From positions 4,561-68,560 of the forward strand of contig CAYMCR010000001.1 in NCBI GenBank assembly GCA_964389015.1: a stretch of DNA of 64,000 nucleotides, in the 5' to 3' direction. The notes beneath the pieces are model-generated. The model was not told where the DNA came from and did no database searches. It was given only the letters and a program-made list of their open reading frames with translations. The position numbers and the translations under genes are program-made. Shown in pieces: positions 46,163 to 63,854 of this stretch (position 1 is its first letter; the number at the start of each line of letters is the position of its first letter). Source of the DNA: an uncultured Fibrobacteraceae bacterium (GTDB lineage Bacteria > Krumholzibacteriota > Krumholzibacteriia > LZORAL124-64-63).

Positions 46163-48661
46163 TCAGAGATCGTCTGCGGTCCGTATACGGGCCGGTCCAC
46201 CGTCGCGCCAGCGGATGAAGAGAGTACCGTCGAGATCCGTACGGAAGCAGCGCAGCGTGTCGCCACCACTGGTGAAGGGGCCATGGCTCGGGTGCTGGTG
46301 TCGATTCTCCAGTCCGCAGCTGATCAGCACCGTGCCGGGGCGGAAGGCAGCCAATAACTCGGGCGTACTGGAAGTGCGGCTGCCGTGGTGACCCGCCTTG
46401 TACACGTCGATTGCGCCTGGCAACGCCAAGGGCATGTCCACGAGCAGCGCCCGCTCGCCAGCCTGTTCAAGATCGCCGGTCCACAGACCCCTCATGTGGC
46501 CGCGCCAGTACAGCGCTGTGGCCAAGGAGCGATCGTTCTCGTGCAGGTTCGGCATATCCCGGCCCGCGGAGGCGATGCAGACCAGTGCCCAGTCTCCCAC
46601 ATGGTGCAGGGTGTCGCCGGGAACGGGACGCGAAACTCGTGTCGGTACGGTGTGCGCCGGTGCGTCCGTCCGCCCCCCGAGCCACCACGCCGCAACGTCC
46701 ATGGTGGCGTCAAGCTGTTCGCGCGCTCCGTCGTGATCGGCATGGTGATGCGTGAGCACGACGCCGGCGAGGCTGTCGAGGCCCTCACGCCTGAGCCAGG
46801 GACGCACGTCGCGGGCGAAAGGACCCGTGTCCTGCCACGCCTCCCCCGTGTCGACCAGGACAACGCTGCGGTCCGGGAAGACGAGCGCAGCACAATCCCC
46901 CTGTCCCACGTCGAACTGAATGGCCGTCATCTCGCCTGTGGGCAGGGTCCTGCCGCAGAAGGGGATCGCGAGCAGACACGAGGCGGCCAGCGCTCCCGCC
47001 AGGCGCGCTCTGCGCCGTCGACCCGCAACCAGCAGCCACAGGCCTGCGAGGCCCACGACGTACAGGCCCGCCGCCCGGTAATCCCAGACCGGCAGGCCGA
47101 GTCTGGCGGCGTCCAGGGACGACAGGGCGACCGTGCCCGCGGAGAGCAGGCGCAACATCAACCAGGCCACGGCGGCAAGGCCGTCTGCGAGCCAGACCGC
47201 CGGCGACAGCAGGATGGACCCGGCGGCGAGCCAAACGGCCCCCCCGAACAGCGGCACCGCGGCGAGATTGAACGCTGTGGCCAGAGGGTGCAGCCAGCCG
47301 AAGCTCCGCGCCGTCTCCGGCAGCGCGCCCAGCTGCGCCCCGATGCTGACGGCCAGTGCGTTGCCCAGCCACCGCCAGGCACGCGGTGCGTGGCCGAGCC
47401 TAGGCGTCACGACACGTAGCGTGACGACGATGCCAGCGGCGGCGCCGAGCGAGAGGCGCAAGCCAGCGTCCGCAAGGGATGGAGGCGAGAATACCGCCCA
47501 GGCCCAGACCAGCAGGCCCAACGTGCGCAGCCCGTCGTGCCGCCGTCCCGTCCAGGCAGCCAGGGAGGCCGTGGTGAGCAGGGCTGCCGCGCGCAACGAC
47601 GATCCGGGCATACCGACCAGGAGTGTATAACCGAGCAGAAAGAGGGCCAGCAGACCAAATCGTCCCAGGAAACCGATGCGCGCGATGCGGATCAACAGCA
47701 ACAGGATGCCGGCGACGAGTCCCACGTGCAAACCACTGACGGCGAAGAGATGTCCCAGTCCCAGCACGGCATACGAACTCCGTAACTGCCGCATCCCTTC
47801 GCTGCGCTCGCCCAGCAGCACCGACTGGAGCAGACTGGACTCGTTCTGTGGATACAGGCGGTCTAGACGTCCGATGACGGTGCGACGCAAGGGGTCGAGC
47901 ACAGTAGCGCTAGCGCTGCCGAGTGGATCGCCGTCGGTCACGATGGACGCGGCCCTGGTCAAGCGGCCCTCCCAAACGAGGCCCCGGCCCTGCAGGAACC
48001 GGAAAGGCGAGAAGGAACCGGGCACCGCGGCGCGGCGGGGAACCCGGCACGTGAGATCGCCGACAACGAGTTGCCACATGCGTGGCGGCGGTCCTTCGCC
48101 CGAGACCATCACGCCCTCGGCGACCCGGGGTCCGGGACCGCCGCCGTCGGACTCGAAATCCCCGACAGCGACAAGTATCGCCGGCGCGCGCCAATGCGCA
48201 CCCGACATGCGCGGCCAGGCCGTGACGCGCAAACAGGCTCCCGCACGCCACACGCGTCGCCGCGACGGCGACCAGCGATCCTCACACACGACGCCTCTGG
48301 ACATGGCGGGTGCGTCGCTCGCCTGACAACCGGCGCACCAGCCCAACGCCGCGGTGGCGGAGATTCCGGCGAGCAGGACGACGGGGTGTGCAGTCACAGC
48401 CGCGGCGAACGGCGCCAGGCACGCCAGACGGAGCGCTGTTGCGGCGGTAAGGCCCGTCCGGGAAGTCGCTTCGCGCAGCTCCCGGCTGCTCCACTCGCCG
48501 GCCGACAACGAGGCCAGCAGCACGGCGGCCCAGACCACGGTCCAGGGCAGGGTGCGGATGCCGGCCAGGATACGGAGGACCGGGCGGGTAGTCAGTCCGA
48601 GGGTGCGCTGTAACGCGGCAAGGTGAGGATGGGATCGCCGTCGGGGTTCCAGAAGTGGCAC
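46163..48661 (-). CDS. comEC: DNA internalisation-related competence protein ComEC/Rec2 (DUF4131 + competence channel + metallo-beta-lactamase domain)
   Basis: Multi-TM central region. C-terminal MBL motif VLTHHHADHDG and later GHHGS. 832 aa. The N-terminal 70 nt overlap the GGDEF gene's 3' end, so the true start is probably further downstream. Confidence 0.85.
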   Translation of the reverse strand: MPLLEPRRRSHPHLAALQRTLGLTTRPVLRILAGIRTLPWTVVWAAVLLASLSAGEWSSRELREATSRTGLTAATALRLACLAPFAAAVTAHPVVLLAGISATAALGWCAGCQASDAPAMSRGVVCEDRWSPSRRRVWRAGACLRVTAWPRMSGAHWRAPAILVAVGDFESDGGGPGPRVAEGVMVSGEGPPPRMWQLVVGDLTCRVPRRAAVPGSFSPFRFLQGRGLVWEGRLTRAASIVTDGDPLGSASATVLDPLRRTVIGRLDRLYPQNESSLLQSVLLGERSEGMRQLRSSYAVLGLGHLFAVSGLHVGLVAGILLLLIRIARIGFLGRFGLLALFLLGYTLLVGMPGSSLRAAALLTTASLAAWTGRRHDGLRTLGLLVWAWAVFSPPSLADAGLRLSLGAAAGIVVTLRVVTPRLGHAPRAWRWLGNALAVSIGAQLGALPETARSFGWLHPLATAFNLAAVPLFGGAVWLAAGSILLSPAVWLADGLAAVAWLMLRLLSAGTVALSSLDAARLGLPVWDYRAAGLYVVGLAGLWLLVAGRRRRARLAGALAASCLLAIPFCGRTLPTGEMTAIQFDVGQGDCAALVFPDRSVVLVDTGEAWQDTGPFARDVRPWLRREGLDSLAGVVLTHHHADHDGAREQLDATMDVAAWWLGGRTDAPAHTVPTRVSRPVPGDTLHHVGDWALVCIASAGRDMPNLHENDRSLATALYWRGHMRGLWTGDLEQAGERALLVDMPLALPGAIDVYKAGHHGSRTSSTPELLAAFRPGTVLISCGLENRHQHPSHGPFTSGGDTLRCFRTDLDGTLFIRWRDGGPARIRTADDL

Positions 48662-50118
48662 CTGTTGCGGCCTCTCTGCTTCGAGAGGTACAGCATCCTG
48701 TCCGCGTTACGGTAGAGCTCCTCCGGCGTCTCGCCGGCACCGGGGTATTCCACGCCCCCGAAGGAGATGGTGACGCGTAGCGGCTCTTCGGCACCGGGAT
48801 CCGTCAACCTGAGATTGGCGATCCGGACCTGGATACGGGTGACGATGTCGTGGGCGGCCTCGAGGTCCGTGTCGGGCAGGACCAGGGCGAACTCTTCGCC
48901 GCCGACACGACAGACGAGATCGATCCGCCGCAGACCCTGTAGCAGCTCGCGGGCCACGGCCTTGAGTACACGATCGCCGGCGGGATGGCCGTGGCGATCG
49001 TTGACGTCCTTGAAGTGGTCGATGTCCCCCAGCAACAAGACCAGCTGTGATTTGCGACGGTGCGCGCGTTCCATCTCGAGCACGAACTGCTCGTCGAAGA
49101 AAGCGCGGTTGTTGACACCCGTGAGATTGTCGGTGTGCACCAGACGACTCATCAGAAGGGTCTGACGCCACCCGTTGGTTACGAAGCGAGAGATGCGCAG
49201 CGCCAGGTTGATCAAGGTCTCGCGTTCGATCGGCTCGGTGTGGATCACGTAGAGCAGCCCCACCTCGCTACTCTCACCTGCGCCTTCGGACGCCGCCACT
49301 TCAGCCGGCGGGTAAAGCGGCACGGCGACGCCCGCCGTAAAACTAACCTTTTCGCCGCCTTCCCCGCTACGACGACGCAACTGCGACGGCAGTTCGTTGC
49401 GCGACGGAATCCAGACTACTTCGCCCGCGACCCTCGTCACGGCCCAGAAGGGCCGGTCCTCCCGCGGACTGGTGCCGATGTTCGGCAAGGGTTCGGGAAC
49501 GTCCGCCGGCTTGAAGAGTTCGATGTGGAGCTCGGCGTGCGGGAAGGTCGGCTTGAGAAGTTCCACCACGTCCTGGAGTATGCAGGCGACACCGCTGCCG
49601 GTCGTGCGGGTGACCGTCAGATCCTGCGCCCGCTCCATGGCGTTGAGAAGACGTTCGTGCAACTCGGGATCGTGTGTCGACAGTGGATCCGGGTCGGGGA
49701 GTCGCTCCTCCACAGGAGCGGTCTCTTGGACTGTTTCTGCGACGGCTGCTTCTTCCGTCGGTTGCGCAGCCGGGTAGAACGGCGACAGGTCGAGCAGGGC
49801 GCCGTGGTCCTGCAACGCGTAGGTGAGATCAGCGCCCGCTTCGTCGCCGCCGACCGTAACCCTGACCAGGTCGCCGCGGCGGATCATATTGGTGACCAAC
49901 GAGCGTCCGTACTTCAGCAGAGCCTCCGGGTCGTTCGCCGCCAGGGCCACGCGCAGAGCGCGGCGCAGTGGTGTGGCGACCTGCGCTACGGAAAGGAGAT
50001 GCTGTATGAGTGCTCTCAAGGCGATGTTCGTCTCCCCTGCAGATGTCACCTTGACGCGCTTGAGTTGCACGTATATTGGTACGGGACTGGCAAGTTCGCA
50101 CGTATATAATTGTGACAC
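48592..50118 (-). CDS. Diguanylate cyclase (GGDEF domain, active-site GGEEF) with a ~330-aa N-terminal sensory region (GAF-like)
   Basis: C-terminal NLTGVNNRAFFDEQ...LLGDIDHFKDVNDRHGHPAGDRVL...RVGGEEFALVLPDT is the canonical GGDEF domain with an intact GG(D/E)EF. GTG start at 50118. Confidence 0.85.
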   Translation of the reverse strand: MSQLYTCELASPVPIYVQLKRVKVTSAGETNIALRALIQHLLSVAQVATPLRRALRVALAANDPEALLKYGRSLVTNMIRRGDLVRVTVGGDEAGADLTYALQDHGALLDLSPFYPAAQPTEEAAVAETVQETAPVEERLPDPDPLSTHDPELHERLLNAMERAQDLTVTRTTGSGVACILQDVVELLKPTFPHAELHIELFKPADVPEPLPNIGTSPREDRPFWAVTRVAGEVVWIPSRNELPSQLRRRSGEGGEKVSFTAGVAVPLYPPAEVAASEGAGESSEVGLLYVIHTEPIERETLINLALRISRFVTNGWRQTLLMSRLVHTDNLTGVNNRAFFDEQFVLEMERAHRRKSQLVLLLGDIDHFKDVNDRHGHPAGDRVLKAVARELLQGLRRIDLVCRVGGEEFALVLPDTDLEAAHDIVTRIQVRIANLRLTDPGAEEPLRVTISFGGVEYPGAGETPEELYRNADRMLYLSKQRGRNRCHFWNPDGDPILTLPRYSAPSD

Positions 50119-51965: not shown

Positions 51966-53048
51966 CTAGAAATGGGCGGTGATGCTGACGCGGTGGGTTT
52001 CCTCGTCGATCTCGAGCACGTCCCCTGCATAAGCATAGTCGATGGTCAGCATGGCGAGGCGGAAACCGGCGCCCATGGTGATGTCGTCGAGGGACCAGCC
52101 CGAATCGAAGCCTCCCCGCAGGAAGACCTTCTCGTGCAGGGCGAGTTCCCCGCCGCAGTGCACGTTCGTGCTGAGAGAGCCGGTGTGGTACTGATCGGCG
52201 GCCCGGCGGTTCTCGAAGCGCGTTTCGGCGCTGGTGGCCAGTGTGATGCGCGCGTCCCACGACGGCAGGTGCAGATTGTAGGCGAGAGCGGGCACGATCG
52301 TGGGTGCGATCTTTTCGTTCTTGGCATAGCCGTCCGGTCCCGACCAGGAGAGATAGGTCCTGGTGGCGTCCTGCAGTTTCAAACCGAAATCCAGGTCGCG
52401 CCAGATCCCGCGGCGCAGGGCGCCCAGGTCCAGGCCGATACCCACGCTCGAGTATTCGCCGACGCTCTGGCGGATGAACTTCACGGTCCCGCCCAGTTGC
52501 CAGTCGCCCTTGCGTTCGGCGTAGCTGGCGAAGAGCGCCAGCTCGGAATCGCTGGCGAACTTGATCTGGTCCTGGATGGCGAACAGGCCCTGGAGTTCGT
52601 CGTCGGTCACGGTACCGTCGCCGTTGGCATCCAGCTGATCGAAGAGATGATCGGTGAGCGGAATATCATCGATGCCGAGGCGAATAGCCGAGATGGCGAA
52701 AGCGCCGTCCTGGCCGCCGAGCAGGGACCAGCCCACGGGCTGGGCGTAGGCCACGTAGTCGCGGTCGATCAGATCGCCGAAGCGTTCGGCGTGCATCAGC
52801 AACAGGTTGCGACCGTCGGTACCTACGAGGCCGGCGGGATTCCAGAAGGCGGCGGAAGGGTCGTCGGCCACCGCCGTGAAGGCACCCCCCATGGCGAGTG
52901 CGCGCGCGCCGCCACCGTCCTCCATGAAAGCGCCGGCGTACTTGTCGGCCAAGGCTTCCGTGGGCGAGGAAGCGATGACGACGAAAAGACTGATAGCGCA
53001 GACGGAGAGGGCGCTGATATGCGTCCGGTTGGTGCCGGTGAACAGCAT
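51966..53048 (-). CDS. Outer-membrane beta-barrel protein of the FadL/OmpP1-like family (possible T9SS PorV/LptO-type)
   Basis: Start at MLFTG (ATG 53046-53048), with a GAGGAT RBS and signal peptide ...VVIASSPTEALA. The N-terminal motif GARALAMGGAFTAVADDPSAAFWNPAGL resembles the FadL-family N-terminal hatch motif (E. coli [23 protein letters not shown]). Alternating beta-strand pattern, ending in an aromatic residue (F). Confidence 0.5.
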   Translation of the reverse strand: MLFTGTNRTHISALSVCAISLFVVIASSPTEALADKYAGAFMEDGGGARALAMGGAFTAVADDPSAAFWNPAGLVGTDGRNLLLMHAERFGDLIDRDYVAYAQPVGWSLLGGQDGAFAISAIRLGIDDIPLTDHLFDQLDANGDGTVTDDELQGLFAIQDQIKFASDSELALFASYAERKGDWQLGGTVKFIRQSVGEYSSVGIGLDLGALRRGIWRDLDFGLKLQDATRTYLSWSGPDGYAKNEKIAPTIVPALAYNLHLPSWDARITLATSAETRFENRRAADQYHTGSLSTNVHCGGELALHEKVFLRGGFDSGWSLDDITMGAGFRLAMLTIDYAYAGDVLEIDEETHRVSITAHF

Positions 53049-53073
53049 GTAGGATCCTCGCATTCTCAGGGGT

Positions 53074-53100
53074 GAGAAAAGCCGCTCCGGTACGGACGGC
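53074..53100 (-). terminator. Possible Rho-independent terminator downstream of the sigma54 activator gene
   Basis: Imperfect GC hairpin GCCGUCCGUACCGGAGCGGC, followed on the minus strand by UUUUCUC. 66 nt after the activator stop. Confidence 0.4.
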
Positions 53101-53165
53101 TCATCACACATGATACGCCAATGATGCGGCCGGAGCCAAGCCCCCAGTACAGGGCCAAGTGCATC

Positions 53166-54656
<1,491 letters not shown>

Positions 54657-54673
54657 GTGAGTTCCTCCTGCTA

Positions 54674-54695
54674 TCCTGTCAGGCTTCCTGTCAGG
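54674..54695. promoter_or_regulatory. Tandem palindromic operator-like element (2 x TCCTGTCAGG; CCTG-N-CAGG inverted repeats) between the promoter and the RBS of the FleQ-like gene
   Basis: tcctgtcagg (54674-54683), ct, tcctgtcagg (54686-54695). Each unit is itself palindromic. It lies in a locally AT-rich leader (54700-54760) that contains TATTAT/TATAAT-like hexamers and a TTGGCG -35-like element. Confidence 0.4.
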
Positions 54696-54800
54696 CGCAA
54701 AATATCTCTGAATCTCTGCAATCGATGGATATAATAGCACATATGATGCACGGACGCCAACCTTGCAGTCGTGCGTGCAGGGGGCATGTCAGTTCGGCGA

Positions 54801-55292
54801 TCAGTTCTGCCGGTGCAGGTACTCCACATCCATGCCGTTGATGAAGGACTCGTAGGCCACGTTGGCGCCGGTTGCACGACCGCTCTTGAGCGCGATCTCA
54901 TCCAGCGTTTCCGCAGCTCTGCGCAGGCGCCGCAGCATCGCATCCAGGGCCTCCAACCCTAGCTCCCCCGTCTCCCCACGGCCGGGCTGTGCGGGTACGG
55001 CAGCCTGGACCGCGCGATAGGCGGCCAGACCCGCGGCGGCAGGTGCGGCTTTTATTTCGGATCGTGCCTGGACTTCGCTTTGACGTGGGCGCGTCGCATG
55101 AGCCGGCAGCGCGGGTTTCCAGTTCGTCAGGAGCACCGGCCAGGTCAGGCCGGGCAAGCGCCGGCGCAGGCGCTGGATCTGGATGTAGACCACCACGACG
55201 ATGGCCGTGCCGCCGGCTGCCAGAGCTACCGCGCCCAGCCAGGCCATGGTCTTGTTGCCGCTCTCGAGTAGATTGAGTATGTCCAGACCCAT
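54801..55292 (-). CDS. Hypothetical single-pass membrane protein (163 aa) in the flagellar regulatory segment
   Basis: N-terminal TM helix AWLGAVALAAGGTAIVVVVYIQI. Ala/Pro-rich linker. C-terminal helical region. No family recognised. Located downstream of fliA and upstream of the fleQ-like gene. Confidence 0.4.
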   Translation of the reverse strand: MGLDILNLLESGNKTMAWLGAVALAAGGTAIVVVVYIQIQRLRRRLPGLTWPVLLTNWKPALPAHATRPRQSEVQARSEIKAAPAAAGLAAYRAVQAAVPAQPGRGETGELGLEALDAMLRRLRRAAETLDEIALKSGRATGANVAYESFINGMDVEYLHRQN

Positions 55293-55345: not shown

Positions 55346-55675
55346 TCAGGCTTTCGTGTCCAACATGACGCCCTTGCCACCGTCCTCGGGCTCGTCCGCC
55401 GAGCCCGCCGTTTCCTTCGCGCCGGAGGGTGTGTCTTGCACCTCGTCCTGCGGCTCCTTGTTTGCGGTTCCGCCCCGATCGCGTTTGCGGTCGGGATCGA
55501 TCTTCTGCTTCTGCACCTCTTCGTTGTGTTTGACCCGGTCCACGCGCTTGTCGTTCTTCAACAGCTTGTCGGTCGCCGGATTCACGGGCTGCGTGGCTTG
55601 TCCCTTGACCTGGGTGCGGGCCAGATTGGCGATCTGGCTGATGGTGGTCTTGACGGAGAAGCCATCACTCGTCAT
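55346..55675 (-). CDS. Hypothetical 109-aa highly charged, low-complexity protein (likely disordered) immediately downstream of fliA
   Basis: Strong RBS GGGAGGTG 4 nt before the ATG. Composition K/D/E/Q-rich (..KHNEEVQKQKIDPDRKRDRGGTANKEPQDEVQD..). No TM helix. Confidence 0.45.
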   Translation of the reverse strand: MTSDGFSVKTTISQIANLARTQVKGQATQPVNPATDKLLKNDKRVDRVKHNEEVQKQKIDPDRKRDRGGTANKEPQDEVQDTPSGAKETAGSADEPEDGGKGVMLDTKA

Positions 55676-55725: not shown

Positions 55726-56670
55726 CTAGGTCCTGAGCGGCACATCCAACTCCATCAGGATCGCCGCCAGCTTGATCATCGGCGGCAGGGCCAGCCCCGC
55801 CATGATGTTGATCTTCTCGTAGAGCGCCTGCTTGTCGACGGCGCTGTCCGCCGTGTCTTCCCGCTGCTCACGGATCTCCTTGCTCAAGCGGTCGATCGAT
55901 TTCCGGCCGTCGCTCCGCTGGATCTTGCCGCGCAGGCGCAGGATCGCCTTGGTGTGGATCTGGCACACGCGGGATTCGGTGACGTCCAGGATCTCGCCGA
56001 TCTCCTTCAGGGTGAGCTCCTCGTAATAGTAGAGGACCAGCACCAGTTGTTCCTTGTCCGCGAGCTCGCCCAGGCTGCTGGCGATCAGGCACCGCATTTC
56101 CTCCTCGGAGACACAGGTCTCGGCGTCGGGCGTGCGGGTATCGGGCAGGTAGTCGCCCAGGCTCGAACTGTCGTCGTCGTCGGAACCGTCGGCGTCCAGC
56201 GAGACGATCGTCGCCACGGCCACCTCGTCCATCATGATCGCCAACTCGCGTCGTGTGACGCCCAGATCGCACGCCAGTTCCTCGTCCGTCGGCGTGCGGC
56301 CGAAGCGGGACTCGAGACGGTTGTGGGCGTCCTCCAGTTGGCGTGCCTTGCGGCGCAACGAGCGCGGGAACCAGTCCTGCGTGCGCAGCTCGTCGAGGAT
56401 GGCGCCGCGTATCCTGGGGATCGCGTAGGTTTCGAACTTGTTGCCGCGGTGGTAGTCGTAGTTGTCCACGGCCTGGATAAGTCCCAGCAGCCCGGCCGAG
56501 ACCAGATCGTTGTGATCCACGTAGTGGGGCAGGCCGATGGCCATGCGACCCGCTACGTACTTGACCACGCGCGCATAGAGCTCGACCAGCTCCCGGCGGG
56601 CCTCCTCATCTTCGCCTACTTCCAGACGCTCCCAGAGCTCCAGATGAGCGATCGTATTGGTCTTAAGCAT
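55726..56670 (-). CDS. fliA: Flagellar sigma factor sigma28 (FliA) with an unusual ~64-aa C-terminal extension
   Basis: Region 2 (YVDHNDLVSAGLLGLIQAVDNYDYHRGNKFETYAIPRIRGAILDELR) and region 4 HTH (LTLKEIGEILDVTESRVCQIHTKAILRLR) are clear up to residue ~250. The ORF continues through 314 aa, ending ...KINIMAGLALPPMIKLAAILMELDVPLRT. Confidence 0.85.
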   Translation of the reverse strand: MLKTNTIAHLELWERLEVGEDEEARRELVELYARVVKYVAGRMAIGLPHYVDHNDLVSAGLLGLIQAVDNYDYHRGNKFETYAIPRIRGAILDELRTQDWFPRSLRRKARQLEDAHNRLESRFGRTPTDEELACDLGVTRRELAIMMDEVAVATIVSLDADGSDDDDSSSLGDYLPDTRTPDAETCVSEEEMRCLIASSLGELADKEQLVLVLYYYEELTLKEIGEILDVTESRVCQIHTKAILRLRGKIQRSDGRKSIDRLSKEIREQREDTADSAVDKQALYEKINIMAGLALPPMIKLAAILMELDVPLRT

Positions 56671-56710: not shown

Positions 56711-56726
56711 TGCAGTTTCTGTGCCC
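56711..56726 (-). promoter_or_regulatory. Candidate sigma54 (-24/-12) promoter upstream of fliA
   Basis: Minus strand gGGCACaGAAAcTGCA, compared with the consensus TGGCACG-N4-TTGCA. GG-N10-GC spacing is correct. About 40 nt upstream of the fliA ATG. Confidence 0.4.
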
Positions 56727-56743: not shown

Positions 56744-57064
56744 TTACTTCTCTTCACCGATGAGTTGCTGCTTTCGCTCGGTCTTGCGCCGTTTCTTCTC
56801 CTCCACACGCTTCGCCTCGGCTTCGGCGCGCTTGGTCGCCTCGACCTCCAGGTGGGCCCGTTGCTTCGACCAGTCCTCGCGTATCCAGTCGTCCTGGATG
56901 CCTGCTCTGAAGATCATGACCAGGACCGCGCCTAGAGCGTAGAAGACGAAGTAGGCGATGGCTGCACGCTTGAGCGTGGCCAGGATTCCGTAGTCGCGAA
57001 CCAGCGCGAAACACACGGCCGCGAAAGCCGCCGTCAGAGCCGTGGTGTTGACGAGTTTCTTCAT
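56744..57064 (-). CDS. Hypothetical 106-aa protein with two TM helices and a charged coiled C-terminal tail, translationally coupled downstream of flhF
   Basis: GGAGGA RBS. 20 nt after the flhF stop. TM1 TTALTAAFAAVCFALV. TM2 AAIAYFVFYALGAVLVMIF. Tail ...EVEATKRAEAEAKRVEEKKRRKTERKQQ. It occupies the position where flhG/fleN usually sits. Confidence 0.45.
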   Translation of the reverse strand: MKKLVNTTALTAAFAAVCFALVRDYGILATLKRAAIAYFVFYALGAVLVMIFRAGIQDDWIREDWSKQRAHLEVEATKRAEAEAKRVEEKKRRKTERKQQLIGEEK

Positions 57065-57083: not shown

Positions 57084-58223
57084 TCACTCGGCGCTCGCTT
57101 CCTCGAAAACAGCGGCTTTGTCTTCATCCATTGCGGTGTCCAGGATCCGCTCCAGCAAGCGTGCGGGCGTGGCGATCTCGGCGCCGGGGCCGGGCCAGGC
57201 GCCGCCGCTGAGCAACGAAAGCGGCAAGGGCGCCGCGAGCAGGATGTCGATCAGCTTGCCCGCGCGTGCCGTCAAGTCCAGCCGCGTGAGCGCCAGCCAG
57301 TCGCAGTTCCAGGTCCGCGCCACGGCCCAGGCCCGTTCACGTTCGGCCAGATCGGCATCCACCGGCAGCAGCAGGTGCCGATGCACTTCTTCGTGATCGG
57401 CGAACAGTCGATGCAATTCATCGTCCGCGAGGGCCCGGCCATCCAGCGAAGGCGTGTCGATGAGGACCACGTCGTATTGCTCGAAGTACTCCAGGCCGCC
57501 TGAGAGCTGCGCGGCGTCGCGCAGAATCGCCGCGTCGTAACCTCGCGCGGACGCCTCCTCCTGCAGACGACGAATCTCGCCCCCGTGACGCGGCGCGTAG
57601 GACAGGACCAGGATACGGCGCCTCATTTCCTTGAGCCGGGCGGCGACGGAAAGAACGAGGTCGGTCTTGCCGGCGCCGGGGCCACCGAGGAAGAGATGAC
57701 AGCCGGCCAGATCGCGCCACCCGCCGCCGCTGGTGCGCAGCAGACCCGCCAGGTGGTTCCGCGCGGCCCCTGGAGTATCGTCGCCCCCGGCCTCGGCCCG
57801 GAACAGGCGCTGCAGATGGCGGACGGCGGGCAGGGTCGCACCGACGGTGAGCAACTGCCGCCCGAGGGGGTAGTCCCCGATGGCCGCCTTGTCCGCGCCG
57901 GCACGTTGGTTACGCGGGGCGCGCAGGGTCTCGATGAGGTCCTCGATACGCTCGACCTCTGCGGCGATCGCCCGCGTGTAGTCCGGTCGGGAGCGGTCGG
58001 ATGCGACGGCGGGCGGGGTCGCGGCGCCGGTCTCCGGCAGGGTTATCGTGACCTCGATGAGCCGTGCGCTGCCCAGACCGGTCTCGTCTCGTCGGGTCAC
58101 GCTCTTGGTGTCGACGATGCAGGCGCGTTCGCCGTACTGCCGCCTCGCATTATGCAGAGCCTCACGGAGCGTGTGGCCGGTGACCTTGTGCCTGGGCGTC
58201 TCAGGCTGTCGCTTGCTGCGCAT
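57084..58223 (-). CDS. flhF: Flagellar biosynthesis SRP-like GTPase FlhF
   Basis: Basic N-terminal region. GTPase G1 motif LFLGGPGAGKTDLV. G3 VVLIDTPSL. G4 TRLDLTARAGKL. Overlaps the flhA 3' end by 22 nt. Confidence 0.85.
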   Translation of the reverse strand: MRSKRQPETPRHKVTGHTLREALHNARRQYGERACIVDTKSVTRRDETGLGSARLIEVTITLPETGAATPPAVASDRSRPDYTRAIAAEVERIEDLIETLRAPRNQRAGADKAAIGDYPLGRQLLTVGATLPAVRHLQRLFRAEAGGDDTPGAARNHLAGLLRTSGGGWRDLAGCHLFLGGPGAGKTDLVLSVAARLKEMRRRILVLSYAPRHGGEIRRLQEEASARGYDAAILRDAAQLSGGLEYFEQYDVVLIDTPSLDGRALADDELHRLFADHEEVHRHLLLPVDADLAERERAWAVARTWNCDWLALTRLDLTARAGKLIDILLAAPLPLSLLSGGAWPGPGAEIATPARLLERILDTAMDEDKAAVFEEASAE

Positions 58224-60324
58224 CTTGCACTCCCTGCGTGGAAACGGTTCCTGCCGATTGGACGCTCGTGTTGGCTGTCACTTCCGTGTAACCCATCACG
58301 GGCAGGCTGGGAAACGTGGGTTCGATCAATCTCTTCACGAAGAGCCGCATGGGCGTCGGCACCAGCAGCACCGGCGGCTTGCCCTGGCTGTATACCTTCT
58401 GCAGGGTGCGCTCCAGTCGCTCCAGGAGCGTCTGGGCCAGCAGGGGATCCAGCACGACCGCGCCGACCCGGTCCGATTCCTTCGCGGCCTGGCCGAGGTT
58501 GTATTCCGTCTCCGGATGCAGCGTGACCGCGTAGACGTTGCCGTCGGGCTCCACGTAGAGACTGCTGATGTTGCGGCGCAGTGATTCGCGCACCTTCTCC
58601 AGCAGCAGGTCTACACCCGCTTTGGCGTTCATGTAGTTGGCGAGCGTTTCGAGGATGGTGACGATGTCCTTGATGGGGATCCGCTCGTGCAGCAACCCCC
58701 GCAGGACGTTGTGCAGCGTGTTCACCGGCACCTTGTCGGGAATGAGATCCTCGATCAGGGCCGGGGCGAACTCGCGCACCGTCTCGCACATGTCCTTCAC
58801 GTCCTGCCTGGACAGCAGCTCGTCGGCGTGGTTGCGAATGGTCTCGGACAGGTGGGTGGCGAGCACGGCCGTCGGCTCGACGACGGTGTAGCCCTCCATC
58901 TCCGCGGCCGCCTTGCGCCCCGGGTCGATCCAGATCGCGGGCAGTTTGAAGGCCGGTTCCACCGTCTCGATACCCTCGAGCTTTTCACCGCTCGCGCCGC
59001 CGGTGCTCATGGCGAGCAGCCGGTCGGGCCGCAACTCGGCGCGGGATATCTCGACGCCCTTGAGCTTCAGCACGTAATCGTTCGCGCCCAGCTGGAGATT
59101 GTCCCTGACACGCACCGGCTGGATGACCATGCCCAGCTCGGTGCTGATCTGCTTGCGGATGTTGGTGATGCGGACCAGCAGATCGCCGCCGCGGGATTCG
59201 TCGACCAGGGGCAGTAGGCCGTAGCCGAGTTCCAACTCCAGGGCGTCGGTCACGTACAGCTCGCGGATGGTGTCCCGCTCCTGGGCTCCGGCTTCCTGCT
59301 CGGCTGCCTGTCCGGAGAGCTCCTCCGCCTGGCTATTTTCAATGCTTTGGACGCGTCCCGAGACGATGCGACCGGCCATCGCGAACGCCGCGGCCAGCCC
59401 CACGAACGGCAGCGTCGGCAGCCCGGGTATCAACCCGAACACGGCCAGCGCGCCCGAGGCCAGATAGATCGCCTTGGGTTGCCTGAAGATCTGCATCGTG
59501 AGCGCTTGACCCAGGTTCATGCTGCCGCTGGAACGCGTCACCACCATGCCCGCCGCCGTGGAAATGAGCAGGGCCGGGATCTGGGTAACGAGGCCGTCAC
59601 CCACGGTCAGAAGCATGAACTGGCGCATGGATTCGCCGGCGCTCATACCCATCTGCAGCATGCCGACGACGAAACCGCCGACGATGTTGATCAGGGTGAT
59701 GATGATGCCGGCGATGGCGTCGCCGCGTACGAACTTGCTGGCACCGTCCATAGCACCGAAGAATTCGGCCTCGGACGACACCTTGGCGCGTCTCTCCCGC
59801 GCCTGCGCTTCGTTGATGAGTCCGGCGTTCAGGTCGGCGTCGATGGCCATCTGCTTGCCGGGCATGGCATCGAGGGTGAATCGGGCGGCCACCTCGGCGA
59901 TACGGCCCGAGCCCTTGGTGATCACCACGAACTGGACGATCACCAGGATGGCAAAGACTATGACACCGATGACATAATTCCCGCCAATCACGAAATCGCC
60001 GAAACTGGCGATGACCTTGCCGGCGGCCGCCTTGCTGAGGATCAGACGGGTCGACGCCACGTTCAGCGCCAGCCGGTAGAGGGTGACCATGAGCAGCAGG
60101 GACGGGAAGCTCGAGAAGTGCAACGGCTCCTTCAAATACAGCGCAACCAGCAGGATGACGACGGCGAAGGCGATGTTGAATGTGATCAAAAGGTCCAGGG
60201 CGATGGGGTTTACGGGCATGATCATCAAACCGATGACCGCCACGACGGCCAAGGCGCTCAACACGTTGCTGTTGGCCAGGATCAAGTCCCTGTCGATCTC
60301 CTTTGTGCCGTCCAAGCCGTTCAC
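58201..60324 (-). CDS. flhA: Flagellar export apparatus protein FlhA
   Basis: 707 aa. N-terminal TM region with the FHIPEP motif (VVITKGSGRIAEVAARFTLDAMPGKQMAIDADL). Large cytoplasmic C-domain. Confidence 0.95.
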   Translation of the reverse strand: MNGLDGTKEIDRDLILANSNVLSALAVVAVIGLMIMPVNPIALDLLITFNIAFAVVILLVALYLKEPLHFSSFPSLLLMVTLYRLALNVASTRLILSKAAAGKVIASFGDFVIGGNYVIGVIVFAILVIVQFVVITKGSGRIAEVAARFTLDAMPGKQMAIDADLNAGLINEAQARERRAKVSSEAEFFGAMDGASKFVRGDAIAGIIITLINIVGGFVVGMLQMGMSAGESMRQFMLLTVGDGLVTQIPALLISTAAGMVVTRSSGSMNLGQALTMQIFRQPKAIYLASGALAVFGLIPGLPTLPFVGLAAAFAMAGRIVSGRVQSIENSQAEELSGQAAEQEAGAQERDTIRELYVTDALELELGYGLLPLVDESRGGDLLVRITNIRKQISTELGMVIQPVRVRDNLQLGANDYVLKLKGVEISRAELRPDRLLAMSTGGASGEKLEGIETVEPAFKLPAIWIDPGRKAAAEMEGYTVVEPTAVLATHLSETIRNHADELLSRQDVKDMCETVREFAPALIEDLIPDKVPVNTLHNVLRGLLHERIPIKDIVTILETLANYMNAKAGVDLLLEKVRESLRRNISSLYVEPDGNVYAVTLHPETEYNLGQAAKESDRVGAVVLDPLLAQTLLERLERTLQKVYSQGKPPVLLVPTPMRLFVKRLIEPTFPSLPVMGYTEVTANTSVQSAGTVSTQGVQDAQQATA

Positions 60325-60330
60325 CTCCTA

Positions 60331-61392
60331 TCAGGACCGTTTCAGCCGGTAGACATAGGCCAGCACCTCGGCCACTGCCTGGTAGAGTTCATCTGGAATG
60401 AAAGCACCCACTTCCGCGACCTTATGCAGAGCCCGTGCCAGGGGCTTGTTTTCGAGGACGGGGACCCTGTTTTCCCGCGCGATGCGCTTGATGATCTCGG
60501 CGAGGCTGTCCTGCCCCTTGGCCACGACCCGGGGCGCCATCTCGCCCGCGGTGTACCGCAGAGCCACCGCGAAGTGGGTCGGGTTGGTGACGACCACGTC
60601 GGCGCGTGGAACTTCCGCGAGCATCCGCTTGCGCATGGCCTCCAGCTGGATGGCACGCATACGCGCCTTGACCTGTGGATCGCCCTCGATATCCTTCTGC
60701 TCCTCGATGACCTCTTGCTTGGTCATCTTGATCTGCTCCTCGTGCTGCCATTTCTGGAAGACCCAGTCGAGCAGAGCCAGCACCGTCAGGAAGGCCACCA
60801 ACCGGTAGACCAGCTTGGCCACGGTCTTGATGCCCAGGGCCAGGATCCCCTCCACGGGGAGTTCCGCGGTGCCCGGCAGCTCGGCGCCCAGCCGGGAAAC
60901 CGTGTACCAGGAGAGCAGGGCGATCAGGAAGATCTTCACGACGTTCTTGGCCAGGTCGAAGCCGGCGCGCTTGCTGAAGACGTTCTTGATGCCGTTGATG
61001 GGATTGATGTTGTCCCAGCGGAAGGCCATGGCGCTGACGTTGACCTTCCAGCCCACCTGGAGCACGTTGGCCAGGAACGCGACCACGATGATGCCGAGCA
61101 TCAGCGGCGCGAGCGTCGCCACGATGACGCTCAGATTGGCCGTGGCCATCTCCACCAGGGCGAACGGATTCTCGAGCAGGAAGATGTGGGGCTGGCCGAA
61201 GAGGTAGCGGGCGTTCTCGCCGAGCACCTGCTGCATGTGGCGGCCGGCCACGAAGAGCAGCGAGAAACCGGCCAGCAGCACCAGCGCGCTGTTCACTTCC
61301 TGGCTGAGCGCGACCTGCCCCTTTTCCAGGGCCTTCTCGCGCCGTTTAGGTGTCGCGCGCTCTGACCGCTCTCCACCGGGAGCATCCGCCAT
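60331..61392 (-). CDS. flhB: Flagellar export apparatus protein FlhB
   Basis: N-terminal TM segments. Autocleavage motif NPTHFAVAL. 353 aa. GGGAGGTGAGG RBS. Confidence 0.95.
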   Translation of the reverse strand: MADAPGGERSERATPKRREKALEKGQVALSQEVNSALVLLAGFSLLFVAGRHMQQVLGENARYLFGQPHIFLLENPFALVEMATANLSVIVATLAPLMLGIIVVAFLANVLQVGWKVNVSAMAFRWDNINPINGIKNVFSKRAGFDLAKNVVKIFLIALLSWYTVSRLGAELPGTAELPVEGILALGIKTVAKLVYRLVAFLTVLALLDWVFQKWQHEEQIKMTKQEVIEEQKDIEGDPQVKARMRAIQLEAMRKRMLAEVPRADVVVTNPTHFAVALRYTAGEMAPRVVAKGQDSLAEIIKRIARENRVPVLENKPLARALHKVAEVGAFIPDELYQAVAEVLAYVYRLKRS

Positions 61393-61470
61393 GGTTCCTC
61401 ACCTCCCTTCCTGCGGCGCCGGCTCGGCCGGCGTTAGGCCCGGAACGTTCTTGTCCGGTCCTGGTTGTGG

Positions 61471-62256
61471 TCAGCCCTGCAACGCACCCAGCAGGGACAC
61501 GAGCTCCTGCTCCATGCCGCCTATCAACGTCTGGAACACCTGGTTGAAGAAGGTCAGCGAGACGCCGAGGGCTGCCAGGCCCACGGCGATCTTGATCGGA
61601 AATCCGACCACCAGGATGTTGAACTGGGGCACCGTCTTGACGATGAAGCCCATGGCCACGCTCACCAGCAGCAGCACCAGGATGACCGGCGCCGCCACCC
61701 GCAGACCGATGGCGAAGAAGGCGGCGAAATTCTCCATGGTGAGCCAAGCTCCCGCCCCCACCGACAACGGCGAAAAGGGCGGCACGAGTCGGCAGGAGTG
61801 AACCATGGCGCCGATCAGGGTGTGGTGACCGTCCAGGGCGAAGAACAGCAGCACGGCCAGCAGGTAGTAGAGGTTTGCCAGCACCGAGAGCTGCCCGCCG
61901 CTCTGGGGGTCCAGGGTGTTGACCATGCCGAAGCCGATCTGCACGCCGATCATGGTGCCCGCGAAACGCACGGCCGCGAAGGGTATGCCGACCACGAAGG
62001 TCAGCAGCGCCCCCACGACGAGGGAGCGCAGACCCTCGGCCACGAGTCCGTGCCAGGTGAGGTCGAAGGCTTCGGGCGGCAGCTCGGAAGCCACCGCCGG
62101 CGCGGTGGTGGCGGCCAGACAGGCCGCAAGCGCCAGGCGCCAGACCGGCGGCACCGACATGCCAGAGAGCAGAGGCAGCAACGCGGCCAGGACGGAGAGA
62201 CGCAGGGTCAGGATCAATCCCACGATCAGCCAGGTCAGATCCAGTTCTACCTGCAC
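61471..62256 (-). CDS. fliR: Flagellar export apparatus protein FliR
   Basis: 261 aa polytopic membrane protein, sited between fliQ and flhB. FliR-like pattern (..GFGMVNTLDPQSG..). Confidence 0.9.
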   Translation of the reverse strand: MQVELDLTWLIVGLILTLRLSVLAALLPLLSGMSVPPVWRLALAACLAATTAPAVASELPPEAFDLTWHGLVAEGLRSLVVGALLTFVVGIPFAAVRFAGTMIGVQIGFGMVNTLDPQSGGQLSVLANLYYLLAVLLFFALDGHHTLIGAMVHSCRLVPPFSPLSVGAGAWLTMENFAAFFAIGLRVAAPVILVLLLVSVAMGFIVKTVPQFNILVVGFPIKIAVGLAALGVSLTFFNQVFQTLIGGMEQELVSLLGALQG

Positions 62257-62265
62257 GTGCTGCTC

Positions 62266-62529
62266 CTACATGGCGCCGATGCGCTCGAAGATACCCAGGG
62301 TGAACGTGGTGAGTTGGTGGATGATCCAGGGCAAGGCGAGGATCAGCACCACGAAGACGGCGATGATCTTGGGCACGAAGGTCATGGTCATCTCGTTGAT
62401 GTGCGTAGCCGCCTGGAAGATGCTGATCGTCAGACCGACCAGCATGCCGGCGGCCAGCATGGGGCCGGCGACCAGCAATGTCGTACGCAGGGCCAGCTGT
62501 CCCAGCTCGACCACGGTTTCGGGATTCAT
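62266..62529 (-). CDS. fliQ: Flagellar export apparatus protein FliQ
   Basis: 87 aa, two TM segments. ...LLVAGPMLAAGMLVGLTISIFQAATHINEMTMTFVPKI... is the FliQ signature region. Confidence 0.9.
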   Translation of the reverse strand: MNPETVVELGQLALRTTLLVAGPMLAAGMLVGLTISIFQAATHINEMTMTFVPKIIAVFVVLILALPWIIHQLTTFTLGIFERIGAM

Positions 62530-62542
62530 GGCGTCCTTTCGC

Positions 62543-63316
62543 TCAACCGTTCTGGAAAGCCATCACCAGGGAGCGGACGATCAGGTACCAACCGTCCACC
62601 AGCACGAATAACAGGACCTTGAAGGGCAAACTGATCAGCACCGGCGGCAACATCATCATGCCCATGGACATCAGGACCGAGGCGACGACCATGTCGATGA
62701 TCAGAAACGGCAGGAACAGTACGAAGCCGATCTGGAAGGCCATCTTGAGTTCGCCCAGGACGAAACTCGGCACCACGATGAGCAGGGGTAGATCCTCTGG
62801 CTCCGCGGGGGCCTCCTGGTTCGTCAAATCCAGGAACAGCGCAACGTCCTTCTCCCGCACCTGGCCGAGCATGAAGTTCTTCAGGGGCGCCTTGGCTAGC
62901 TCCAGCGCCTCCTGTTGGCTCAGTTCCTCGGCCAGGTATGGCTGGAGGGCCTCGGTGTTTATCTGCTGGAAGACCGGCCCCATGATGACGAAGGTCAGGA
63001 ACAGGGCCAGTCCGATCAGGATCTGGTTCGAGGGCATCTGGTGCGTGCCCATGGCCTGACGCAGGAAGCCCAGCACGATGATGATGCGCGTAAAGCTGGT
63101 CAGCAGGATCAACAGGGCCGGCGCCAGCGAGAGCAGCGTCATCAGCAGGACGATCTCGACCGCCACGTCCAGGCGGGCCGGTCCGTCCATATCGCCCAGC
63201 GATAGGTTGATGCTGCCGGGAGCCGCAGCCGCCGGATCCTGGGCGTAACCGGACGAAGCCAGCAGCAACACGGCCAGGAACAATCCGCTTGTGATGTATC
63301 TGCAACGATGCTTCAA
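62543..63316 (-). CDS. fliP: Flagellar export apparatus protein FliP
   Basis: Signal peptide, then [40 protein letters not shown]... (canonical FliP). TTG start with a GGGGAGGG RBS. Confidence 0.9.
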   Translation of the reverse strand: [257 protein letters not shown]

Positions 63317-63358
63317 GGCGTGGCCCTCCCCTGGGCAGGCTGTAACCCATACTGTTAC

Positions 63359-63373
63359 GCAATGGGCGTGCCA
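63359..63373 (-). promoter_or_regulatory. Sigma54 (RpoN) -24/-12 promoter upstream of fliP, in the 166-nt fliO-fliP gap
   Basis: Minus strand TGGCACGcccaTTGCg. This matches TGGCACG-N4-TTGC exactly, with GG-N10-GC spacing. Located 43-57 nt upstream of the fliP start. Confidence 0.55.
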
Positions 63374-63482
63374 GTCTCGAGTGGCGTAGATTCGTCTGGA
63401 CGAGCGTTTTACGGGGTTGGGTCGGGGCTGCTACGGCCGTCGCGGCCGACTTCCGGCCAGGGCTGGTTAGGATCTCGACAGC

Positions 63483-63854
63483 TCAGCCGCGGTCGGGGCG
63501 GTCGTTGCCGCGCAGGCGGTCCAGCCAGCCGGCGAGGGACGGTGCCGGCGTCGTCGCGTCGTGACGCTGGGGATCGAAGGGCTCCTGGTCCAGCAGCACC
63601 ATGGCCTGGTCGCTGCGGTACAGGGTGTAGACCGTTTCACCGCAGCGCAGCACCTCGACGCCGCGGCGCGGTCCCAGGGAATGCACGCGCAGCAGCGAGG
63701 CCTCGGCCCCGCCGCCGCCGCGCTGCTGGCGGCCCAGGATCTTCAGAAATACGATCAGCAGGGCGAAGACGAGCAGGAAGGCGCCGGCCAGCTTCCACCA
63801 GGAGGGATCGCCGGGCTGCGCCGCAGCCGCCAGGATGAAACGTGGAGCGAGCAT
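63483..63854 (-). CDS. fliO: Flagellar biosynthesis protein FliO (probable)
   Basis: 123 aa. Single TM (WWKLAGAFLLVFALLIVFLKIL) near the N-terminus. Gene lies between fliN and fliP, the conserved position of fliO. Its sequence is poorly conserved in general. Confidence 0.6.
   Translation of the reverse strand: MLAPRFILAAAAQPGDPSWWKLAGAFLLVFALLIVFLKILGRQQRGGGGAEASLLRVHSLGPRRGVEVLRCGETVYTLYRSDQAMVLLDQEPFDPQRHDATTPAPSLAGWLDRLRGNDRPDRG

Follow-up and report, generated by a model that had tools for sequence, protein, structure and literature searches.

In Vibrio cholerae the flagellar genes are expressed in a hierarchy in which FlrA and sigma-54 turn on the structural and export genes together with fliA, and fliA in turn serves the sigma-28-dependent late genes. 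Pseudomonas and Geobacter are established examples in which fliPQR, flhBA, and fliA are controlled by sigma-54. Primer extension supports RpoN promoters of Geobacter sulfurreducens upstream of fliL-fliM-fliN-fliP-fliQ-fliR-flhB (GSU0420-0426), and among the predicted RpoN promoters the one with the highest score is found before the flhA-flhF-fliA operon (PMC2725144). In Pseudomonas putida, sigma-N and FleQ are required by PflhA and by PflhF, the latter being intragenic (PMC6424431).

The flagellar cluster that reaches the end of the 64-kb stretch of DNA analysed here (the window) resembles that of Geobacter in that the gate genes and sigma-28 are under sigma-54 in both, in the present case as predicted from sequence. 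The arrangement differs. In Geobacter the promoter is found upstream of fliL, and fliLMN and fliPQR-flhB form one unit, whereas in the window fliLMNO belong to an upstream block, the candidate promoter follows fliO and fliA has an element of its own. The likeness to the FleQ/sigma-N class II genes of Pseudomonas concerns promoters of the TGGCACG-N4-TTGCW type that precede genes of the export gate and of regulation (flhA, flhF, fliA), the position of PflhF inside the preceding coding region, which is mirrored by a tentative site inside flhB of the window, and FleQ itself, an unphosphorylated protein with receiver-like, AAA+, and HTH domains that is the best structural match to the activator encoded in the window. 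On the other hand P. putida PflhA and PflhF are off-consensus at several positions (TGGAAAG..., TGGAACA...), whereas the window element, referred to here as PfliP, is exact and is positioned between fliO and fliP; moreover the window cluster is without a FleN/FlhG gene and the N-terminal domain of its activator is not recognised by the Pfam FleQ model. With Vibrio the locus would share the hierarchy, i.e., a master enhancer-binding protein acting with sigma-54 first, but Vibrio has in addition a second, phosphorylated activator, FlrC, and FlhG, neither of which was seen in the window cluster. Distinctive features of the present locus are the placement after fliO and not before fliL, the exact consensus, the lack of FleN in the cluster, and the phylum.

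The current understanding of sigma-54 and of flagellar regulation is left unchanged by this analysis, the value of which lies in the annotation of an uncultured lineage. It offers a testable regulatory map of flagellum synthesis for a lineage without a cultured member, in which a sigma-70-driven activator and sigma-54 would serve the export gate, fliA, and possibly the hook genes, and sigma-28 the late genes. The sigma-54-centred flagellar hierarchy, known mainly from Proteobacteria, would thereby be extended to relatives of Krumholzibacteria.

The fliO-fliP gap and the genes around it

In this part of the window every gene is encoded on the minus strand. The fliO gene (63483..63854, 123 aa) ends the upstream fliI...fliN-fliO block, in which the 5' part of fliN lies beyond the window end. 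Its product gives a weak match to the FliO family TIGR03500 (E 3.6e-6), below the curated cut-off, and its place between fliN and fliP is conserved. The next gene, fliP (62543..63316, 257 aa; Pfam FliP, E 4.8e-81), has a TTG start and a ribosome-binding site, GGAGG, at 63329..63325. An earlier reading made from the sequence only had described an unusually long gap of 166 nt between these two genes, with an exact -24/-12 element on the coding strand about 45 nt before fliP, and this description is accurate. The gap extends over 63317..63482, and the plus strand at 63359-63373 reads GCAATGGGCGTGCCA, corresponding to TGGCACGCCCATTGC on the minus (coding) strand (63373..63359), that is, TGGCACG-N4-TTGC, with GG at -24 and GC at -12. 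The GG and the GC are exactly 10 nt apart within the consensus TGGCACG-N4-TTGCW, the next base being G and not W. The element is on the same strand as fliP, and the distance from the C of the -12 GC to the TTG start is 43 nt. Transcription from sigma-54 promoters starts about 12 nt after the -12 GC, and by this rule the start site of PfliP is predicted near 63347, which would give a 5' UTR of about 31 nt. Between 62400 and 64000 neither a sigma-70-like promoter nor a terminator was called. Rfam gave no match in the gap or in the window, and no tRNA was found in the window.

The exact pattern TGGCAC-N5-TTGC occurs a single time in the window when both strands are searched. By chance 0.18 occurrences are expected in these 128 kb, and at least one was seen in 17 of 100 shuffles; when this shuffle figure is scaled, by our own calculation, to one strand of the 166-nt gap, the chance rate becomes about 2e-4. 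With one mismatch allowed there are six sites in the window against 4.4 expected, so that on the letters of the window alone only the exact site stands out.

The first gene past PfliP is fliP, and the rest of its transcription unit is likely to consist of fliQ (62529..62266), fliR (62256..61471), flhB (61392..60331), flhA (60315..58201), and flhF (58223..57084), which were assigned by Pfam family and gene call and which would be co-transcribed over 57084..62529. The sequence-only reading had put the other junctions of the locus at 0-20 nt, which is roughly right; the junctions from fliQ to flhF are short except for fliR-flhB with 78 nt, and the gap before fliA measures 73 nt. The fliA gene (55726..56670) encodes a sigma-28 factor of the FliA/WhiG type, with Pfam Sigma70 r2, r3, and r4 and a TIGR02479 FliA_WhiG score of 262 bits, above the cut-off. 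Pfam scans of the main window ORFs gave no match to the sigma-54 family, i.e., no rpoN.

Some smaller features of these genes may be mentioned here. The TTG start of fliP (window 63314-63316) is kept in the nine loci examined (L083-L091, L001), a sign that weak initiation of translation may be selected for in this low-copy gate protein. The fliR-flhB gap (61393-61470, minus strand) contains a GC hairpin, GCCGGC-CGA-GCCGGC, and a conserved strong SD sequence, GGAGGTGAGG; no sigma-54 motif was found in it, and its length compares with 25-48 nt in other lineages. Three conserved small ORFs are found on the minus strand at 56744-57064 (106 aa), 55346-55675 (109 aa), and 54801-55292 (163 aa), none of them with a match to a Pfam or NCBIfam family. 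The 106-aa ORF sits after flhF, the usual position of FlhG/FleN.

Conservation in related loci and further sigma-54-type sites

The window was compared with 11 loci, namely (FliP identity to the window in brackets) L083 (88%), L084 (87%), L085 (83%), L088 (80%), L089 (80%), L090 (76%), L091 (72%), L001 (70%), L092 (~69%), L093 (~70%), and L094 (~71%); the 12 distinct loci span FliP identities from 100% down to about 66-70%. Only 4.4 kb of DNA was fetched for L001; for the other relatives the fetched DNA reached as far as 10 kb to either side of fliP. A profile search of genome contigs with the FliP alignment yielded L001 as the only useful locus, the matches listed being almost all from distant phyla, and a metagenome search with the FliO alignment yielded two loci that are near-duplicates of L084 and L085. 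The window FliP is identical to a protein on a metagenome scaffold (ENA ERZ23498658). Named relatives of FliP and of the activator come from MAGs labelled Candidatus Krumholzibacteria, Krumholzibacteriia, or Krumholzibacteriota, and one FliP relative carries the label Gemmatimonadales. The presence of flagellar genes in Krumholzibacteriota MAGs has been noted earlier (PMC10936416).

The gene order is the same in the ten larger loci, with fliI, fliJ, an MgtE_N-like gene, fliK, flgD, flgE, flbD, motA, motB, fliL, fliM, fliN, and fliO upstream, and, after the gap, fliP, fliQ, fliR, flhB, flhA, flhF, a small ORF, fliA, small ORFs, and the activator gene. Between fliO and fliP all relatives keep a gap of 137-330 nt, while the neighbouring junctions are tight. 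In all 12 distinct orthologous loci the gap contains TGGCA(C/T)-N5-TTGC on the coding strand; this is the sole exact match in the fetched DNA of nine loci (20 kb in eight, 4.4 kb in L001), and L092 and L094 have one further exact match each (see below). The sequence around the motif varies freely. The spacers are GCCCA, GGCCA, GACCA, GCGCC, GCGTG, GGGCG, and GCCCG, the gaps of L089, L090, L091, L001, and L092-L094 are otherwise unalignable, and when nine loci are anchored on the motif, their consensus across 75 nt shows nothing but TGGCAcG..c.TTGCg. The distance from the -12 C to the fliP start is 36-67 nt (nine orthologous loci). Two invariant boxes at a fixed spacing in free surrounding sequence are the footprint that is expected from selection on a sigma-54 promoter. 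The promoter reading first put forward from the window alone is thus strongly supported, the motif being kept in 12 of 12 loci while spacer and flanks vary, and we consider it highly probable that TGGCACGCCCATTGC is a functional sigma-54 (RpoN) promoter. The 12 aligned promoter instances could seed a genome-wide search for the sigma-54 regulon of the lineage.

The stretch downstream of fliP seems to carry further promoters of the sigma-54 type, one before fliA and possibly one inside flhB. It had been suggested to scan for other such sites in front of flagellar operons, and no further exact site is present in the window, but a relaxed element was found before fliA. Allowing up to two mismatches with GG and GC fixed, the pattern has 17 matches on the window coding strand, of which two are intergenic: PfliP and the element GGGCACAGAAACTGC (PfliA; 56712..56726, minus strand), which lies 42 nt before the fliA ATG and was not reported in the sequence-only reading. 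A GG-N10-GC site with at most two mismatches is present 36-43 nt before fliA in every locus that includes this gene (11 of 11), and in distant loci it comes nearer to the consensus, e.g., TGGCACGAAACATGC, TGGCATGGAATCTGC, and TGGCACGTTTCGTGC. From these alignments PfliA is regarded as a second genuine sigma-54 promoter.

The flhB-internal element, TGGCACGGGCTCTGC(AT), also TGGCACGGGCTCTGCAT, is located at 60426..60440 (minus strand), where the codons of a conserved LARALH motif near the 3' end of flhB spell it out about 111 nt before flhA, and much of its conservation is therefore explained by protein constraint. However, the Ala codon within the site is GCA in seven of seven close loci while the wobble positions around it vary; only 5% of the Ala codons in the genes compared are GCA, and among 107 conserved Ala columns of seven genes the flhB-internal one alone is GCA throughout. 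Such a fixed rare codon is a point in favour of a genuine site. L091, however, has GCG at this codon and has lost the element, and none of L092-L094 gave a matching site, for which reasons the element is called tentative here, as a possible promoter written into coding sequence. Relaxed sigma-54-like matches in motB (TGGAACAGTTCCTGC) and in the transmembrane region of flhB were set aside as coding conservation.

The additional exact matches of L092 (127-141) and L094 (609-623) are perfect TGGCACC-N4-TTGC elements in a gap of 200 nt that follows fliJ; they precede the genes leading into fliK, flgD, and flgE by 60-62 nt. On account of these sites the hook genes may also be under sigma-54 control in this Krumholzibacteria-related phylum. 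The lineage of the window has no post-fliJ gap, and a weaker element, AGGCACGAAAACTGC, is found inside fliJ at L081 674-689, beyond the window end.

The putative activator

The gene at 53166..54656 (minus strand) encodes an enhancer-binding protein of 496 aa with a receiver-like domain, an AAA+ domain with GAFTGA, and HTH_8, and it is the last gene of the cluster in all 11 loci for which the fetched DNA extends that far. Pfam recognises Sigma54_activat (E 7e-67), the AAA lid, and HTH_8, and the translation contains the Walker A sequence GESGTGKE and the GAFTGA loop. GAFTGA is invariant in eight syntenic orthologues, and in an alignment of 42 sequences, which reaches 55% identity, all of its positions are invariant except the first Ala. 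Enhancer-binding proteins with GAFTGA are known to act only with sigma-54, and the conservation of this one lends indirect support to the presence of rpoN in the genome.

Residues 1-125 gave no Pfam match even at E up to 10, FleQ and Response_reg included, and no PDB match by sequence, and a homologue search with the N-terminal domain alone returned two short proteins of 134 and 158 aa. In the AlphaFold model of the activator (mean pLDDT 83, N-terminal domain about 80-90), the N-terminal domain is a (beta-alpha)5 receiver-like fold that is followed by a long linker helix. Strand 3 is followed by an invariant Asp; Gly-Arg-Arg stands in place of the acidic pair after strand 1, and there is neither a Thr/Ser after strand 4 nor a Lys after strand 5. 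As these phosphorylation residues are absent, ordinary phosphorylation control appears unlikely from the model. The best Foldseek match in the PDB is full-length P. aeruginosa FleQ (8p53) over 382 columns, and the AAA+ domain matches that of P. aeruginosa FleQ with an E of 2.8e-75. The residues of FleQ that we take to bind c-di-GMP are the Arg of LFRS and the Arg-Asn after Walker A; in the alignment to 8p53, KEVVARNLH is matched by KELVARALH, i.e., the Arg is kept and the Asn replaced by Ala, and LFRS by NRSG.

The sequence-only reading had called this protein FleQ-like. Since full-length FleQ is the best Foldseek match the term is fair for the architecture, and it agrees with the Sigma54_activat, GAFTGA, and HTH_8 assignments. 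Membership of the FleQ family is not established, because the Pfam FleQ domain was undetected, the c-di-GMP Asn is not kept, and no FleN/FlhG gene follows flhF. FleQ and FlrA are usually paired with a MinD-like antagonist, FleN/FlhG, which is encoded after flhF, and in the window cluster no such (MinD/ParA-like) gene was found, flhF being followed by the 106-aa ORF and then by fliA. Nor was a binding site of the protein found (see below).

A conserved sigma-70-like promoter of the activator gene is predicted at 54731..54760 (minus strand), consisting of TTGGCG, an 18-nt spacer, and TATTAT with a TG extension, and this fits a place of the activator at the top of a hierarchy. The 144-nt gap in front of the gene (54657-54800, minus strand) also contains three CTGACA boxes (54792..54787, 54694..54689, and 54682..54677) that flank this promoter, two of them forming a tandem CCTGACAGG pair right before the SD sequence GCAGGAGG. 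In L081, L083, and L084, three of the 4-5 CTGACA copies per 20-kb locus are within the pre-activator gap. These boxes may be a site of repression or autoregulation, or CsrA-like ACAGGA sites.

Regulation of the export-gate genes

Exact sites can arise by chance, as seen somewhere in 17 of the 100 window shuffles, and PfliP might then be a match in GC-rich non-coding DNA with no function. This does not agree with a site whose place and orientation are unchanged across 12 loci, despite gaps that have diverged and, in the distant loci, are beyond alignment; the comparative data effectively refute a chance match and leave it a negligible probability. A reading that accepts the element and limits its role is that PfliP acts as a booster inside a long operon, where most of the fliPQR-flhBA transcription would arrive by read-through from the promoter of fliI...fliO and the sigma-54 element would merely tune the dosage of the gate genes. 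No terminator was called after fliO in the window, and upstream read-through into fliP is therefore possible. The local hairpin is short and without a T-run, and the post-fliO RNA fold in the window does not differ significantly from that of shuffles (z = -0.96). A comparable case is PflhF of P. putida, an internal sigma-N promoter that adds to read-through transcription (PMC6424431). However, L084 has, between fliO and the promoter, a GC stem of 10 bp with CTTTTCATCT behind it that was scored as a terminator, and by eye we recognised strong hairpins downstream of fliO in L089 and L091 as well, their tails rich in T or T/C; in L089 the tool made no such call. The preservation of the long gap in all relatives, amid tight junctions, also speaks against a mere booster, which is considered possible and on the doubtful side. 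The separate transcription unit of the sequence-only reading is accordingly backed in part, by the terminator-like hairpin of L084, but not by any terminator call in the window.

A similar weighing applies to the protein that acts on PfliP. The element may be real and yet be driven by a different enhancer-binding protein encoded elsewhere in the genome, e.g., a phosphorylated response regulator of the FlgR/FlrC type that reports basal-body assembly, in which case the cluster activator would have other targets. Vibrio and Pseudomonas are known to have sigma-54 cascades of two tiers, with two activators. In favour of another protein, no binding site common to PfliP, PfliA, and the upstream region of the activator gene itself was found, and the CTGACA boxes before the activator gene are absent from the fliO-fliP gap. 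By contrast, only one enhancer-binding protein is encoded in or beside the cluster, the position of its gene is kept in the 11 loci fetched that far, over FliP identities of ~66-100%, and there is no histidine kinase gene next to it in the window. Control by a distant activator is on balance improbable, and we lean, with modest confidence, towards the neighbouring protein (54656..53166) as the one that drives PfliP.

K-mer and pairwise comparisons of the DNA that precedes PfliP, PfliA, and the flhB-internal site found no common activator-binding motif, the shared matches being only GC-rich noise or coding-sequence similarity. The gap does contain a conserved block of 40 nt, GATCCTAACCAGCCCTGGCCGGAAGTCGGCCGCGACGGCC, at 63435..63474 (minus strand), directly after the fliO stop and 62-101 nt ahead of the -24 element; activator-binding sequences of sigma-54 promoters are expected upstream, about 80-150 bp from the promoter. 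The five closest lineages, L081, L083, L084, L085, and L088, have kept the block, and in L091 it can still be recognised, with another spacing to the promoter; it includes the short palindromes CTGRYCAG and GGCCG-N-CGGCC. In L083 and L084 it adjoins the 10-bp GC stem. The block is not common to PfliA or the flhB-internal site, and it may be a putative binding site of the activator, the remnant of a terminator hairpin, or both.

With PfliP taken as a sigma-54 promoter under the neighbouring activator, the following course of events can be proposed. The sigma-54 RNA polymerase would bind TGGCACG-N4-TTGC as a closed complex, which an ATP-hydrolysing enhancer-binding protein would remodel to an open complex. 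The most likely activator would be the FleQ-resembling protein of 54656..53166, which is without the phosphorylation residues and which, having its own sigma-70-like promoter, could be placed at the top of the hierarchy. A transcript beginning near 63347, with the short leader of about 31 nt, would then cover fliP-fliQ-fliR-flhB and probably continue into flhA-flhF. In parallel PfliA would drive fliA and so link the sigma-54 tier to the sigma-28 late genes, and the possible third promoter inside flhB may add to the expression of flhA, as FlhA is needed in more copies than FlhB. The motif with its place and conservation, and the domains and gene order of the activator, are directly seen in the sequences. 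We infer from the locus the presence of sigma-54 in this genome, the start site, the acting activator and the place where it binds, as well as the length of the transcript.

It is tempting to carry this further and to see the fliPQR-flhBA export gate as a module split from the basal-body operon to serve as a sigma-54 checkpoint, with a signal that the N-terminal domain of the activator may sense, but such a role is speculative and rather unlikely. If true, it would make the flhB LARALH site a case of codon choice constrained by promoter function. One possibility for the signal of the receiver-like domain is c-di-GMP, given a GGDEF gene 3 kb away and two HDOD genes beside the activator in distant relatives. 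The GGDEF gene is located in the window at 50118..48592, and the two HDOD/HD-domain genes lie between the small ORFs and the activator gene in L092 (18527-20351), L093 (16795-18616), and L094 (18553-20353). These neighbours hint at a link to cyclic-di-GMP signalling.

The gene right after the activator gene (51966-53111, minus strand) matches outer-membrane proteins of the PorV/PorQ family of type IX secretion, with an NF033709 score of 100.7 bits, above the cut-off, and its position is kept in close relatives.
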